64,000 bases of DNA from Escherichia coli (GTDB lineage: Bacteria > Pseudomonadota > Gammaproteobacteria > Enterobacterales > Enterobacteriaceae): assembly GCF_002854065.1 (NCBI RefSeq), contig NZ_CP024147.1. The stretch is one strand, 5' to 3'. The notes under the pieces were generated by a model, which was not told the DNA's origin, made no database searches, and was given only the letters and a program-made list of their open reading frames with translations. Shown here piece after piece: positions 17,801 through 49,868 of this stretch. Both the position numbers and the translations under genes were made by a program. Each line of letters begins with the position of its first letter. Positions within the stretch are counted from its first letter, which is position 1.

Positions 17801-17903
17801 GAGCCAGCTCCTGACGCTGTATACCACGCCGGTGATGTATCTCTTTTTCGACCGTCTGCGGCTGCGTTTTTCGCGTAAACCTAAACAAACGGTAACCGAG
17901 TAA
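14826..17903 (+). CDS. mdtC: Multidrug efflux RND permease MdtC
   Basis: 1025-aa ORF, RND family, GTG start immediately after the mdtB stop. Confidence 0.95.
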
Positions 17904-19319
17904 ATGACAGATCTTCCCGACAGCACCCGCTGGCAATTATGGATTGTGGCTTTCGGCTTCTTTATGCAGTCGCTGGACACCACCATCGTAAACACCGCCC
18001 TTCCCTCAATGGCGCAAAGCCTCGGGGAAAGTCCGTTGCATATGCACATGGTCATTGTCTCTTATGTGCTGACCGTGGCGGTGATGCTGCCCGCCAGCGG
18101 CTGGCTGGCGGACAAAGTCGGCGTGCGCAATATTTTCTTTACCGCCATCGTGCTGTTTACTCTCGGTTCACTGTTTTGCGCGCTTTCCGGCACGCTGAAC
18201 GAACTGTTGCTGGCACGCGCGTTACAGGACGTTGGCGGCGCGATGATGGTGCCGGTCGGCAGGTTGACGGTGATGAAAATCGTACCGCGCGAGCAATATA
18301 TGGCGGCGATGACCTTTGTCACGTTACCCGGTCAGGTCGGTCCGCTGCTCGGTCCGGCGCTCGGCGGTCTGCTGGTAGAATACGCGTCGTGGCACTGGAT
18401 CTTTTTGATCAACATTCCGGTGGGGATTATCGGTGCGATCGCCACACTGATGTTAATGCCGAACTACACCATGCAGACGCGGCGCTTTGATCTCTCCGGA
18501 TTTTTATTGCTGGCGGTTGGCATGGCGGTATTAACCCTGGCGCTGGACGGCAGTAAAGGTACAGGTTTATCGCCGCTGACGATTGCAGGCCTGGTCGCAG
18601 TTGGCGTGGTGGCACTGGTGCTTTATCTGCTGCACGCCAGAAATAACCACCGCGCTCTTTTCAGTCTGAAACTGTTCCGCACTCGTACCTTTTCGCTGGG
18701 CCTGGCGGGGAGCTTTGCCGGACGTATTGGCAGTGGCATGTTGCCCTTTATGACACCGGTTTTCTTGCAAATTGGCCTCGGTTTCTCGCCTTTTCATGCC
18801 GGACTGATGATGATCCCGATGGTGCTCGGCAGCATGGGGATGAAGCGAATTGTGGTACAGGTGGTGAATCGCTTTGGCTATCGTCGGGTACTGGTGGCAA
18901 CCACGCTTGGCCTGTCGCTGGTCACCCTTTTGTTTATGACCACCGCTCTGCTGGGCTGGTACTACGTTTTGCCGTTCGTCCTGTTTTTACAAGGGATGGT
19001 CAACTCGACGCGTTTCTCCTCCATGAACACCCTGACGCTGAAAGATCTCCCGGACAACCTGGCGAGCAGCGGCAACAGTCTGCTGTCGATGATTATGCAA
19101 TTGTCGATGAGTATCGGCGTCACTATCGCCGGGCTGTTGCTGGGACTTTTTGGTTCGCAACATGTCAGCGTCGACAGCGGCACCACACAAACCGTCTTTA
19201 TGTACACCTGGCTTAGCATGGCGTTTATCATCGCCCTTCCGGCGTTCATCTTTGCCAGAGTGCCAAACGATACGCATCAAAACGTGGCTATTTCGCGGCG
19301 AAAAAGGAGCGCGCAATGA
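17904..19319 (+). CDS. mdtD: MFS transporter MdtD
   Basis: 471-aa ORF, 14-TM MFS drug:H+ antiporter-like; directly follows mdtC. Confidence 0.9.
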
Positions 19320-20719
19320 AGTTCTGGCGGCCCGGTATTACCGGCAAACTGTTTCTGGCGATTTTCGCCACCTGCATTGTCTTGCTGATCAGTATGCACT
19401 GGGCGGTGCGTATCAGTTTTGAGCGCGGCTTTATTGATTACATCAAGCATGGCAATGAGCAGCGGCTGCAAATGCTCGGCGATGCCCTGGGCGAGCAGTA
19501 TGCGCAGCACGGTAACTGGCAATTTCTGCGCAATAACGACCGCTTTGTGTTTCAGATCCTGCGCTCGTTCGAACGCGACAACCCGGAAGACCGAACTGGT
19601 CCCGGTATGCCGCCGCACGGCTGGCGCACGCAATTCTGGGTAATCGATCAAAATAACACCGTGCTGGTTGGCCCGCGCGCGCCCATTCCGCCGGACGGTT
19701 CGCGACGACCCATACTGGTCAATGGTGTTGAAGTTGGCGCGGTGATCGCCTCACCCGTTGAGCGACTGACCCGCAATACTGATATCAATTTCGATAAGCA
19801 ACAGCGGCAAACCAGCTGGCTGATTGTCGCCCTGGCAACGTTACTCGCGGCGCTCGCCACCTTTCTGCTGGCGCGCGGTTTGCTGGCTCCGGTCAAACGG
19901 CTGGTGGACGGCACGCACAAACTGGCAGCGGGCGATTTCACTACCCGCGTGACGCCCACCAGCGAAGACGAACTGGGGAAACTGGCGCAAGACTTCAACC
20001 AGCTTGCCAGCACGCTGGAGAAAAACCAGCAAATGCGCCGCGATTTTATGGCTGATATCTCTCACGAACTGCGTACGCCATTAGCGGTGCTGCGCGGTGA
20101 ACTGGAAGCCATTCAGGATGGCGTGCGTAAATTCACGCCGGAGACGGTGGCGTCTTTACAGGCGGAGGTCGGTACACTGACCAAACTGGTTGACGATCTC
20201 CATCAGTTGTCGATGTCTGATGAAGGCGCTCTCGCCTATCAAAAAGCACCGGTAGATTTGATCCCACTGCTGGAAGTGGCGGGCGGCGCATTTCGCGAAC
20301 GATTCGCCAGTCGTGGCCTGAAACTGCAATTTTCCCTGCCAGACAGTATTACCGTATTTGGCGATCGCGACCGTTTAATGCAGTTATTCAATAACTTACT
20401 GGAAAACAGCCTGCGCTACACTGACAGCGGCGGCAGCCTGCAAATCTCTGCCGGGCAGCGCGACAAAACGGTGCGCCTGACCTTTGCCGACAGTGCGCCA
20501 GGTGTCAGTGACGATCAGCTACAAAAATTGTTTGAACGTTTTTATCGCACCGAAGGTTCCCGCAACCGTGCCAGCGGCGGTTCCGGGCTGGGGCTGGCGA
20601 TTTGCCTGAACATTGTTGAAGCACATAATGGTCGCATTATTGCTGCCCATTCGCCTTTTGGCGGGGTAAGCATTACAGTAGAGTTACCGCTGGAACGGGA
20701 TTTACAGAGAGAAGTATGA
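19316..20719 (+). CDS. baeS: Envelope-stress sensor histidine kinase BaeS
   Basis: 467-aa ORF with HAMP, HisKA (H-box ISHELRTPL) and HATPase_c (GGSGLGLAI) regions; overlaps mdtD stop and baeR start. Confidence 0.9.
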
Positions 20720-21961: not shown

Positions 21962-22214
21962 TTACGATGCCGGGCGTGGGTTGTTGGCGTCCGGCTTTAT
22001 ATCCAAATAACGCTTAGTTATTGATAATTAAGAGTAACTGCCGCCATTAAAATAGTGGGCACTGACGAGCACTCGTTGTGCTTTCTTTGTTTACCATCCC
22101 ATACTTATCCTCCTGAACATGTTCATGTGCCAAAATATCTTCTAATACTTTCGTGACGCTATCCGGTTTATGACATACACTGATGTAAGATTTTTACTTA
22201 CAGGCGGGCGTAAA

Positions 22215-22466
22215 ATGGCCAGAACGATGACGGTTGATCTCGGCGATGAGTTGCGTGAATTTATCGAGTCCTTAATTGAATCCGGCGACTATCGCACCCA
22301 AAGCGAAGTGATCCGTGAGTCACTGCGATTACTTCGAGAAAAGCAAGCAGAGTCTCGCCTGCAAGCGTTACGTGACATGCTCGCAGAAGGGTTGAGTAGT
22401 GGTGAAGCTCAGCCGTGGGAAAAGGACGCGTTCTTACAGAAGGTGAAAGCAGGGATAAGGAAATAA
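22215..22466 (+). CDS. Type II antitoxin, ParD/RHH (CopG-like) family
   Basis: ~83-aa product (MARTMTVDLGDELREFIESLIESGDYRTQSEVIRESLRLLREK...) with a ribbon-helix-helix N-terminus typical of ParD; stop lies 1 nt before the toxin start. Confidence 0.75.
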   Translation: MARTMTVDLGDELREFIESLIESGDYRTQSEVIRESLRLLREKQAESRLQALRDMLAEGLSSGEAQPWEKDAFLQKVKAGIRK

Positions 22467-22467
22467 T

Positions 22468-22764
22468 GTGCGTATTATTAAACTCATGCCAAAAGCCAAT
22501 GAGGATTTAGAAGGCATCTGGTATTACAGCTATCACCATTTCGGCGAACCACAAGCCGACAGATATGTGGAACATCTTTCAGACGTTCTCCAGATTCTGA
22601 GTAACAATAATATAGGTACGCCCAGACCTGAATTAGGCGAAGGTATTTTTGTTCTTCCTTTTGAACGCCACGTCATTTATTTCCTGCAATCACCAGGGGA
22701 AATTATCGTCATTCGTATCCTTAACCAAAACCAGGACGCCACCAGACATTTACACTGGAGCTAA
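22468..22764 (+). CDS. Type II toxin, ParE/RelE superfamily
   Basis: 98-aa product (MRIIKLMPKANEDLEGIWYYSYHHFGEPQADRYVEHL...IIVIRILNQNQDATRHL) with the ParE-like pattern; GTG start translationally coupled to the upstream antitoxin. Confidence 0.75.
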   Translation: MRIIKLMPKANEDLEGIWYYSYHHFGEPQADRYVEHLSDVLQILSNNNIGTPRPELGEGIFVLPFERHVIYFLQSPGEIIVIRILNQNQDATRHLHWS

Positions 22765-22866
22765 ACCCGCCGATTGCGCTACAATGCCCGCCCTTAAAGT
22801 GGGGGCACTCCCCTAACCGCTTCATCAGGTGAAGCGGATCTGACCTGTCATCAGAACGAGAGAATT

Positions 22867-45913: not shown

Positions 45914-47947
45914 ATGACTCAAGTCGCGAAGAAAATTCTGGTGACGTGCGCACTGCCGTACGCTAACGGCTCAATCCACCTCGGCCATATGCTGGAGCAC
46001 ATCCAGGCTGATGTCTGGGTCCGTTACCAGCGAATGCGCGGCCACGAGGTCAACTTCATCTGCGCCGACGATGCCCACGGTACACCGATCATGCTGAAAG
46101 CTCAGCAGCTTGGTATCACCCCGGAGCAGATGATTGGCGAAATGAGTCAGGAGCATCAGACTGATTTCGCAGGCTTTAACATCAGCTATGACAACTATCA
46201 CTCGACGCACAGCGAAGAGAACCGCCAGTTGTCAGAACTTATCTACTCTCGCCTGAAAGAGAACGGTTTTATTAAAAACCGCACCATCTCTCAGCTGTAC
46301 GATCCGGAAAAAGGCATGTTCCTGCCGGACCGTTTTGTGAAAGGCACCTGCCCGAAATGTAAATCCCCGGATCAATACGGCGATAACTGCGAAGTCTGCG
46401 GCGCGACCTACAGCCCGACTGAATTGATCGAGCCGAAATCGGTGGTTTCTGGCGCTACGCCGGTAATGCGTGATTCTGAACACTTCTTCTTTGATCTGCC
46501 CTCTTTCAGCGAAATGTTGCAGGCATGGACCCGCAGCGGTGCGTTGCAGGAGCAGGTGGCAAATAAAATGCAGGAGTGGTTTGAATCCGGCCTGCAACAG
46601 TGGGATATCTCCCGCGACGCGCCATACTTTGGTTTTGAAATTCCGAACGCGCCGGGCAAATATTTCTACGTCTGGCTGGACGCACCGATTGGCTACATGG
46701 GTTCTTTCAAGAATCTGTGCGACAAGCGCGGCGACAGCGTAAGCTTCGATGAATACTGGAAGAAAGACTCCACCGCCGAGCTGTACCACTTCATCGGTAA
46801 AGATATTGTTTACTTCCACAGCCTGTTCTGGCCTGCCATGCTGGAAGGCAGCAACTTCCGCAAGCCGACCAACCTGTTTGTTCATGGCTATGTGACGGTG
46901 AACGGCGCAAAGATGTCCAAGTCTCGCGGCACCTTTATTAAAGCCAGCACCTGGCTGAATCATTTTGACGCTGACAGCCTGCGTTACTACTACACTGCGA
47001 AACTCTCTTCGCGCATTGATGATATCGATCTCAACCTGGAGGATTTCGTTCAGCGTGTGAATGCCGATATCGTGAACAAAGTGGTTAACCTGGCCTCTCG
47101 TAATGCGGGCTTTATCAACAAGCGTTTTGACGGCGTGCTGGCAAGCGAACTGGCTGACCCGCAGTTGTACAAAACCTTCACTGATGCCGCTGAAGTGATT
47201 GGTGAAGCGTGGGAAAGCCGCGAATTTGGTAAAGCAGTGCGCGAAATCATGGCGCTGGCTGATCTGGCTAACCGCTATGTCGACGAGCAGGCTCCGTGGG
47301 TGGTGGCAAAACAGGAAGGCCGCGATGCCGACCTGCAGGCAATTTGCTCAATGGGCATAAACCTGTTCCGCGTGCTGATGACTTACCTGAAGCCGGTACT
47401 GCCGAAACTGACCGAGCGCGCAGAAGCATTCCTCAATACAGAACTGACCTGGGATGGTATCCAGCAACCGCTGCTGGGCCACAAAGTGAATCCGTTCAAA
47501 GCGCTGTATAACCGCATCGATATGAAGCAGGTTGAAGCACTGGTGGAAGCATCTAAAGAAGAAGTGAAAGCAGCTGCCGCGCCAGTTACTGGCCCACTGG
47601 CAGATGATCCGATTCAGGAAACCATCACCTTTGACGACTTCGCAAAAGTTGACCTGCGCGTGGCGCTGATCGAAAACGCAGAGTTTGTTGAAGGTTCTGA
47701 CAAACTGCTGCGCCTGACACTGGATCTCGGCGGTGAAAAACGCAATGTCTTCTCCGGTATTCGTTCTGCCTACCCGGATCCGCAGGCACTGATCGGGCGT
47801 CACACCATTATGGTGGCCAACCTGGCGCCACGTAAAATGCGCTTTGGTATCTCCGAAGGCATGGTAATGGCTGCTGGTCCTGGCGGGAAAGATATCTTCC
47901 TGTTAAGCCCGGATGCTGGTGCTAAACCAGGCCATCAGGTGAAATAA
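45914..47947 (+). CDS. metG: Methionyl-tRNA synthetase
   Basis: ORF 45905..47947; class I aaRS HIGH motif (ANGSIHLGH) and KMSKS; likely start at MTQVAKK (45914); C-terminal tRNA-binding domain present. Confidence 0.9.
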
Positions 47948-47956
47948 TCCCCCTTC

Positions 47957-47986
47957 AAGGCGCTGCATCGACAGCGCCTTTTCTTT
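47957..47986 (+). terminator. Rho-independent terminator after metG
   Basis: aaggcgctg…cagcgcctt stem followed by ttcttt. Confidence 0.5.
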
Positions 47987-48034
47987 ATAAATTCCTAAAG
48001 TTGTTTTCTTGCGATTTTGGGTAATGACTCCAAC

Positions 48035-48538
48035 TTATTGATAGTGTTTTATGTTCAGATAATGCCCGATGACTTTGTCATGCAGCTCCACCGATTTTGA
48101 GAACGACAGCGACTTCCGTCCCAGCCGTGCCAGGTGCTGCCTCAGATTCAGGTTATGCCGCTCAATTCGCTGCGTATATCGCTTGCTGATTACGTGCAGC
48201 TTTCCCTTCAGGCGGGATTCATACAGCGGCCAGCCATCCGTCATCCATATCACCACGTCAAAGGGTGACAGCAGGCTCATAAGACGCCCCAGCGTCGCCA
48301 TAGTGCGTTCACCGAATACGTGCGCAACAACCGTCTTCCGGAGACTGTCATACGCGTAAAACAGCCAGCGCTGGCGCGATTTAGCCCCGACGTATCCCCA
48401 CTGTTCGTCCATTTCCGCGCAGACGATGACGTCACTGCCCGGCTGTATGCGCGAGGTTACCGACTGCGGCCTGAGTTTTTTAAATGGCGGAAAATCGTGT
48501 TGAGGCCAACGCCCATAATGCGGGCGGTTGCCCGGCAT
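48035..48538 (-). CDS. insB: IS1 InsB
   Basis: 167-aa ORF, differs from copy A InsB by one residue (S for R). Confidence 0.85.
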
Positions 48539-48732
48539 CCAACGCCATTCATGGCCATATCAATGATTTTCTGGTGCGTACCGGGTTGAGAAGCGGTGTA
48601 AGTGAACTGCAGTTGCCATGTTTTACGGCAGTGAGAGCAGAGATAGCGCTGATGTCCGGCAGTGCTTTTGCCGTTACGCACCACCCCGTCAGTAGCTGAA
48701 CAGGAGGGACAGCTGATAGAAACAGAAGCCAC
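48457..48732 (-). CDS. insA: IS1 InsA
   Basis: 91-aa ORF identical to copy A InsA. Confidence 0.85.
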
Positions 48733-48787
48733 TGGAGCACCTCAAAAACACCATCATACACTAAATCAGTAAGTTGGCAGCATCACC

Positions 48788-49282
48788 CTGCTGACGTTAT
48801 CCCTTCCGGCATCTGCCTGTTCTCCTTTTGCCGTTGAACGCATGGCGGCGCTTTTGCAACAAACAGACGACCCCGTGAGTCTGGTTTCTGGCTTTGTCAG
48901 CTTTGTAGAGGGGCAATTGACACTGGAACCACGGGTGATGATGACAAAAACCCGTGCCTGGGCGCTGGACGCGGAAACTGCGCCTGTGGCACCGCTACCT
49001 TCTGCCAGCGTTTTGCCTGTGCCGTCTACCGCTCATCAGTTGCTGATGCGCTGCCAGGCGTTACTTATTCAACTGCTCCATAACGGCTGGCGCTATCAGG
49101 AACAGAGCGCTATTAGTCAGGCAGAGTTGCTGGCGAATGACCTCACCGCGGTGGGTTTTTATCGGCTGGCACATGTGTTGGCACAATTTCGTAATACAGA
49201 AAGCGAGGCACGGGTAGAAGCAATGAATAACGGTGTTTTGCTTTGCGAACAATTATTCCCCATGCTTCAGCAACAAGGATGA
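48788..49282 (+). pseudogene. 3' fragment of an upstream gene (possibly yehQ-like), 5'-truncated by IS1
   Basis: Open frame begins at the IS1 junction and ends at 49282 (146-aa ORF from the first Met at 48842); no promoter or 5' part; lies upstream of yehR, where yehQ sits in K-12. Confidence 0.4.
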
Positions 49283-49406
49283 AATAGTGCTTTTTACTAA
49301 GAGTTCTACTCCAGTTCCGGACTGCTCACACCACGGTATTAGGCATATCCTATATAGCCCCTGGTGAGAGTCACCAGTTTCTTGATTAAATAAAATGGAG
49401 TTTTAC

Positions 49407-49868
49407 ATGAAGGCTTTCAATAAGCTGTTTTCCCTCGTTGTTGCATCTGTTCTGGTTTTCTCTCTTGCTGGCTGCGGTGACAAAGAAGAATCGAAGAAAT
49501 TCAGCGCCAATCTGAACGGCACTGAAATTGCCATTACCTATGTCTACAAAGGTGACAAAGTGCTTAAGCAATCTTCTGAAACCAAAATTCAATTTGCCTC
49601 CATTGGTGCAACCACCAAAGAAGATGCTGCCAAGACACTTGAGCCGTTAAGCGCCAAATACAAAAACATCGCGGGTGTTGAAGAAAAATTAACCTATACC
49701 GATACCTACGCGCAGGAAAACGTGACTATCGATATGGAAAAAGTGGATTTTAAAGCCCTGCAGGGTATTTCAGGAATCAACGTTTCTGCTGAAGATGCCA
49801 AAAAAGGTATCACTATGGCGCAAATGGAACTGGTGATGAAAGCCGCTGGTTTTAAAGAAGTGAAATAA
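49407..49868 (+). CDS. yehR: DUF1307 lipoprotein YehR
   Basis: ORF 49395..49868; start at MKAFNKLFSLVVASVLVFSLAGC (lipobox). Confidence 0.8.
   Translation: MKAFNKLFSLVVASVLVFSLAGCGDKEESKKFSANLNGTEIAITYVYKGDKVLKQSSETKIQFASIGATTKEDAAKTLEPLSAKYKNIAGVEEKLTYTDTYAQENVTIDMEKVDFKALQGISGINVSAEDAKKGITMAQMELVMKAAGFKEVK

Follow-up and report, generated by a model that had tools for sequence, protein, structure and literature searches.

The open frame that abuts an IS1 element upstream of yehR in Escherichia coli is the in-frame 3' end of yehQ, very probably a non-functional and most likely silent relic of an IS1-linked deletion. It occupies positions 48788..49282 (plus strand) of the 64,000-nucleotide stretch of DNA that was analysed, referred to here as the window, and by translation and by DNA and protein alignment it comprises codons 503-666 of yehQ and the stop codon.

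The frame is open from 48788, the base directly after the IS1 element (copy B below), and runs through 164 sense codons to a TGA at 49280..49282; in the other direction it continues five codons back into IS1, as far as a TAA at 48770..48772. The earliest ATG, GTG or TTG in this frame is the ATG at 48842, from which the ORF list mechanically derives a 146-aa ORF (48842..49282, plus strand). The initial annotation of the window had described just such a frame of about 146 aa, starting at the IS1 boundary with no recognisable 5' end, and had tentatively assigned it to the 3' end of yehQ. Translation and ORF list bear out the description, and alignment to the YehQ C-terminus bears out the assignment: in BLASTP, 161 of the 164 residues are identical to residues 503-666 of the 666-aa YehQ of strain ABW_A32 (E = 3e-114). 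Judged by that match, the open frame is not due to chance. The remnant represents the last 164 codons, or 24.7%, of the gene. At the DNA level, the right flank of IS1 gives a gap-free alignment with K-12 that begins at NC_000913.3 2210607 (window 48789), inside yehQ, and window position 48788, at the IS1 boundary, equals K-12 2210606, that is, yehQ nucleotide 1507. Since this is the first base of codon 503, the frame in the window is the yehQ frame. The window DNA is colinear with the yehQ-yehR region of K-12, ABW_A32 and 6EVA, and the yehQ homologue lies at its native site upstream of yehR. We also looked for a complete short reference gene to which the fragment might align, and for a failure to match yehQ at all, and found neither; in the intact reference genomes examined, a separate short gene is never annotated at this stretch.

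YehQ residues 1-502, the native start and the first 1,506 nt are missing, including the SWIM zinc finger (PF04434; residues 56-88), which is the sole Pfam domain of full-length YehQ and lies outside the remnant; the remnant itself has no Pfam match at E <= 0.01. The native yehL-yehM-yehP co-transcription context of yehQ is absent here as well. Because the first 1,506 nt and all of the upstream yeh genes are gone, we regard the stretch as a pseudogene remnant and not as a functional member of the family. The full-length protein, a SWIM zinc finger family protein of 666 aa (e.g. WP_001446943.1), is 98% identical to it over residues 503-666. As a separate observation, codon 615 of yehQ is TAG in K-12 MG1655 (NC_000913.3 2210942..2210944) and GAG in the window (49124..49126), ABW_A32 and 6EVA. 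With an amber codon at 615, K-12 YehQ is annotated as 614 aa, 52 residues shorter than the 666-aa form, which makes K-12 an imperfect yardstick for the YehQ C-terminus.

On the metG side of IS1, the alignment of the window with K-12 ends at NC_000913.3 2196405, 72 nt past the metG stop. The gap relative to K-12 is exactly 14,200 bp (NC_000913.3 2196406..2210605), replaced by one IS1, and its content is yehF, the yehH pseudogene, yehI, yehK, yehL, yehM, yehP and 1,506 nt (502 codons) of yehQ. An IS1-associated deletion between metG and yehR had been proposed before, and this part of the proposal stands; its size of 8-9 kb does not, the figure against K-12 being 14,200 bp, and its gene span of yehH through yehQ has to be widened, as the K-12 alignment shows yehF to have been removed too. 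On either side the neighbouring genes are intact: metG (methionine--tRNA ligase; 45914..47947, plus strand), an ORF with the same coordinates in the colinear annotation of strain CUWW06, on the left, and yehR (lipoprotein; 49407..49868, plus strand; ORF and CUWW06 annotation) on the right. With strain 6EVA as the reference, which has extra tandem WGR/DUF4132 paralogues and a yehQ 3' end that matches the window at 99.8% identity, the gap grows to 21,748 bp. In 6EVA (L010 5133..20120), four to five of these paralogues, of ~3.7 kb each, stand in tandem between metG and yehK; the corresponding stretch in K-12 holds yehF, the yehH pseudogene and yehI only, and the copy number of the family varies between strains.

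The element at the junction, IS1 copy B (48020..48787, minus strand), is 768 bp long and of the IS1B type, and has terminal inverted repeats, insA, insB' and the A6C frameshift motif. In the ORF list both of its genes are intact, insA (InsA, 91 aa; 48457..48732, minus strand) and insB' (InsB', 167 aa; 48035..48538, minus strand), and the A6C motif reads GTTTTTT on the plus strand at about 48475-48482. A transposase protein identical to that of copy B is annotated in CUWW06, and PGAP labels the element in CUWW06 and in strain 100416 'IS1-like element IS1B family transposase, programmed frameshift'. The GGTAATGACTCC end of copy B faces metG and the GGCAGCATCACC end faces the yehQ remnant. IS1 insertion normally makes a 9-bp target duplication. 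Around copy B there is none: in the flank read-out the last 9 nt of the left flank (48011..48019, ending 72 nt past the metG stop) are GCGATTTTG, against CTGCTGACG on the right. As a positive control, ABW_A32 has a simple IS1 insertion in the yehQ-yehR interval, and there the alignments overlap by 9 bp (window 49412-49420), which is the duplication. The lack of a 9-bp duplication at copy B thus indicates that the arrangement is not a simple insertion and that a secondary rearrangement has taken place. The window-type metG junction reads TGCGATTTTGGGTAATGACTCC; the IS1|yehQ junction, GGCAGCATCACCCTGCTGACG, is common to the window and to a second public genome, L014 (GCA_900449665.1; a 4.94-Mb NCBI contig).

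Both junctions are also present in two complete, independently assembled E. coli genomes, CUWW06 and 100416 (Thailand wastewater, Gambian stool). These are the 2 of 5,426 complete E. coli genomes that have the IS1|yehQ junction, and both have the metG junction with it; an exact match to the IS1|yehQ junction was sought in a species-representative genome collection with 0 hits. Over 47700..49500, CUWW06 and 100416 are 99.8-99.9% identical to the window. The window and CUWW06 are colinear, with an identity of 99.97-99.98% over the first 50 kb; across the carriers, the flanks are 99.6-100% identical. As IS1 is repeated in many copies and contigs built from short reads end within it, one could imagine the junction to be a false join made by an assembler across collapsed IS1 repeats. 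The chance of this is negligible in our estimation: both junctions are identical in the two independent complete genomes, and the yehQ junction recurs in the 4.94-Mb contig of L014. The yehQ remnant is, in fact, already known as a RefSeq pseudogene in the two near-identical genomes. ACNHKQ_RS14795 (CUWW06) and ACU5SM_RS08700 (100416) are the same feature with the same two junctions, and PGAP marks them 'incomplete; missing N-terminus'. They begin 12 nt inside IS1 (window 48776), whereas we place the start of the remnant at 48788, and they differ in name, being called 'SWIM zinc finger family protein' in 100416 but just 'hypothetical protein' in CUWW06. The exact 146-aa protein is recorded in 249 blocks of a public collection, having been called by gene finders in many assemblies; in all four of the places listed the ORF follows IS1 (one complete IS1 and three contigs that break off inside it).

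How the junction arose may be read from its comparison with L014. There, the junction of IS1 with yehQ nucleotide 1507 is identical to that of the window, the remnant has no differences, and 743 nt covering the metG 3' end and the DNA downstream of it match the window at 100% identity. The far end of its IS1, however, lies at K-12 2197840, inside the yehH/WGR gene and 1,435 bp further from metG, again with no duplication (junction string CAGTTGGCGGGTAATGACTCC), and the deletion measures 12,765 bp versus 14,200 bp in the window. Within one genetic background (window and L014) it is thus the metG-side junction that varies, against a constant yehQ junction; the latter is probably the older of the two, and the deletion probably grew toward metG. 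At first we had inferred the reverse, with the metG-side junction, which is shared with strain GDSC2227PM, as the original insertion; this was dropped since L014 shares the yehQ junction in the same background. Several features of an adjacent deletion are present at the locus: the IS is retained, the duplication is absent, reference DNA is missing exactly from one IS end, and among close relatives one junction is fixed and the other variable.

We propose, then, that IS1 would first have inserted into yehQ at codon 502/503, and that its other end (the GGTAATGAC end) would then, through intramolecular transposition, have produced one or more adjacent deletions in the direction of metG, with IS1 retained at the junction and the flanking DNA lost. 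The 12.8-kb state would have been kept in L014 and the 14.2-kb state in the window, and the 14,200-bp deletion could have grown out of the 12,765-bp one or have arisen independently of it. As metG is an essential gene, a deletion growing in this direction could go no further and would halt there. In the literature, the absence of a target duplication is put down to an adjacent deletion or to recombination of one IS copy with another, and the stepwise growth of deletions beside a fixed IS has been reported (PMC11708052). The ancestor that this model starts from, with a simple IS1 insertion in an intact yehQ and the CTGCTGACG duplication, would read GATAATCTGCTGACGGGTAATGACTCC; it was not found among the 5,426 complete E. 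coli genomes.

Two other routes to the same junction have to be weighed. Homologous recombination between two direct IS1 copies, one at 72 nt past the metG stop (metG+72) and the other at the yehQ or the L014-type position, would excise the interval together with one IS1. The product would be identical, one IS1 without a target duplication, and such recombination is a recognised cause of absent duplications (PMC11708052). There is no shortage of substrate: at least 40 IS1 pieces are listed in each of CUWW06 and 100416, two copies lie within 4.3 kb of the window sequence, and metG+72 is independently occupied by an IS1A in GDSC2227PM (98.25% identical over apbC-metG), so the site attracts IS1. 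In addition, the L014 IS1 differs from copy B at four positions, between 283 and 642, despite identical flanks, which hints at IS1 exchange or gene conversion. Yet these four differences would confine the crossover to the last ~125 bp of the element, and a genome that carries the two IS1 copies together, or a simple insertion at one of the two sites, was not found. We consider recombination a possible but less likely origin of the junction.

The second route places the original insertion at metG+72 and has the deletion run rightwards from the other IS1 end into yehQ. GDSC2227PM has the metG+72 junction too, but its deletion ends on the right where yehL starts, and two further strains from another lineage, EC21Z-063 and P276M, keep one metG-side junction with nested right ends, so rightward growth does occur at the locus. 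GDSC2227PM, however, comes from another background, and its IS1 is another variant: there are 58 mismatches in the 3.3 kb of apbC-metG and 8 in IS1. L014, whose flanks match the window at 100%, has the same yehQ junction as the window but not the same metG junction. An origin at metG+72 thus appears quite unlikely, and insertion into yehQ followed by deletion toward metG remains the reading we prefer.

The remnant is likely to be silent, as far as can be judged from the sequence. Between 47900 and 49950 no plus-strand promoter-like site passes a consensus scan, in agreement with the earlier description of the fragment as promoter-less; the sole promoter-like match in this interval is on the minus strand, inside the IS1 end, and faces inward. 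No Shine-Dalgarno sequence precedes the ATG at 48842. Upstream of IS1, an intrinsic-terminator-like hairpin of metG has been kept (47957..47980, plus strand; a 9-pair stem with 6 G-C pairs, followed by TTCTTTAT). Taken together, the loss of the SWIM domain, the lack of a ribosome-binding site and of a consensus promoter, the IS1 genes reading away from the remnant and the intact metG terminator upstream of it argue for silence, and the remnant will most likely decay. It could be supposed instead that the 146-aa ORF works as a gene of its own, with a C-terminal YehQ module being expressed from an IS1-derived hybrid promoter. Its frame is intact, an identical product is called in the 249 public blocks, and IS1 is known to form fusion promoters, for which its ends can supply the -35 element (PMC9330008). 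A TTGGCA is indeed present 9-14 nt inside the IS1 end and could form a weak outward hybrid promoter with an 18-nt spacer and a TATCCC; this candidate falls below the scan threshold, and the TATCCC, the best -10 available, matches the consensus at 3/6 positions. Against a stand-alone gene stand the failure of any plus-strand promoter to pass the scan, the missing Shine-Dalgarno sequence and Pfam domain, and the fact that the stretch is never annotated separately in intact genomes, while an intact frame is to be expected for an event as recent as the 99.6-100% identity of the carrier flanks implies. We regard such a gene as highly improbable and retain the reading of a silent yehQ relic.

A second terminator-like hairpin was found by the scan between the yehQ stop and the yehR start (49361..49377, plus strand; CTGGTGAGAGTCACCAG followed by TTTCTTG). 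It ends only about 30 nt before the yehR start, and with a hairpin so near, the yehR promoter would have to lie very close to or overlap it, or else yehR would depend on read-through.

The window contains another IS1, copy A (43764..44531, minus strand), which differs from copy B by 1 nt, has the same orientation and likewise lacks a target duplication. It lies between a yehA 3' remnant (43615..43767) and the DNA downstream of apbC, and most of the yehABCDE fimbrial cluster is deleted at copy A, on the opposite side of apbC-metG from copy B. The apbC-metG segment (44532..48019) is in consequence bracketed by two direct IS1 copies. Were copies A and B to recombine, the essential metG would be lost; amplification is also something that such a pair could bring about. 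We considered and rejected a composite transposon IS1-apbC-metG-IS1 (43764..48787): the outer flanks, TTAAATTTG and CTGCTGACG, differ, so that no duplication surrounds the unit, and they are colinear with the usual neighbours on the chromosome, rcnB/yehA and yehQ/yehR. The segment thus sits at its native position. Target duplications swapped between copies A and B, as inversion or exchange would leave them, were also looked for, and no 9-mer flank matches another.

Elsewhere in the window, 187 bp of CUWW06 (L008 31310..31496), including the gatZ 3' end as annotated in that strain, are missing at about 31496/31497, beside the end of an IS5 between gatA and gatZ; the gap resembles a short deletion adjacent to IS5 and peculiar to the window strain. 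The colinear annotation of CUWW06 (L008 coordinates plus 191) also has a split MASE1/PAS (dgcE-like) pseudogene, an mdtD with an internal stop and, between yegP and yegQ, a parDE toxin-antitoxin pair, features of decay or accessory content that correspond to window positions of about 5600..7740, 17900..19320 and 22170..22770.

The loss described here is one of several at the same locus. A segment from yehM to yehP is present at >=80% coverage in 5,215 of 5,426 complete E. coli genomes and absent from 90. In GDSC2227PM (L005 4121..4888), an IS1A sits at exactly the nucleotide of window 48019/48020, 72 nt after the metG stop, in an unrelated background and with the right end of the deletion at the yehL start; this coincidence suggests that metG+72 may be a target hot spot for IS1. 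In the related strains EC21Z-063 (L007) and P276M (L012), a single divergent IS1 (91.5% identical to copy B) with a common metG-side junction has nested right ends: in one strain 84 nt of the yehQ 3' end are left, and in the other the deletion reaches into yehR. These two strains add a further natural series in which an IS1-adjacent deletion has grown at the locus. One IS1 replaces several kb of the same cluster in GDSC2227PM, NT1F34/NT1N28, AR_0369, EC21Z-063 and its relatives, and P276M, but with other breakpoints than in the window and with IS1 variants 91.5-99.6% identical to copy B; in KFu022, yehH-yehP are lost with no IS at the junction. All IS1 copies at the locus appeared to share one orientation. 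We do not count this as a finding, as the queries held IS1 in one orientation and only same-strand pieces were joined. In Shigella sonnei lineages 2 and 3, a deletion of ~7 kb includes yehL and yehM; unlike that in the window, it is reported as not flanked by IS (PMC12795559). The yehF-yehQ cluster is thus dispensable and repeatedly lost.

Of the genes concerned, yehL and yehM are silenced by H-NS in K-12 (PMC3686432), and PADLOC defence models gave no hit for YehL, YehM, YehP, YehQ, YehI or the fragment. One might speculate that metG+72 is a sequence-specific IS1 hot spot, and that the whole WGR/DUF4132-MoxR-VWA-SWIM island of yehF-yehQ is being purged time and again from IS1-rich E. coli and Shigella-like lineages, by selection and not through neutral decay. 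Although we think this rather doubtful, the yehQ tail would, if it were true, mark the recurrent and possibly adaptive loss of an uncharacterised H-NS-silenced system.

More soberly, the locus is one more case of the recurrent loss of the functionally unknown yehF-yehQ cluster. This is ordinary reductive genome evolution, it is not novel, and it matters little beyond correct annotation. The correct label is a yehQ pseudogene remnant, in place of the 146-aa hypothetical protein called in hundreds of assemblies. The two IS1 junctions provide a precise lineage marker that can be tested by PCR, and the junctions of L014 and the window together provide a small natural example of stepwise IS1-driven gene loss that stops at an essential gene.

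The formation of deletions by IS1 is classical in E. coli and Shigella, where IS-linked pseudogenes are also known. The events that have been described in the long-term evolution experiment (PMC11708052) involve IS150, whereas the element here is IS1, and the simple-insertion intermediate was not recovered at our locus. In other respects the two are alike: as in the adjacent deletions of that study, the IS is retained, the duplication is absent and one junction is fixed. As in known IS adjacent deletions, too, it is non-essential genes that have been lost from the window, up to the edge of an essential gene.
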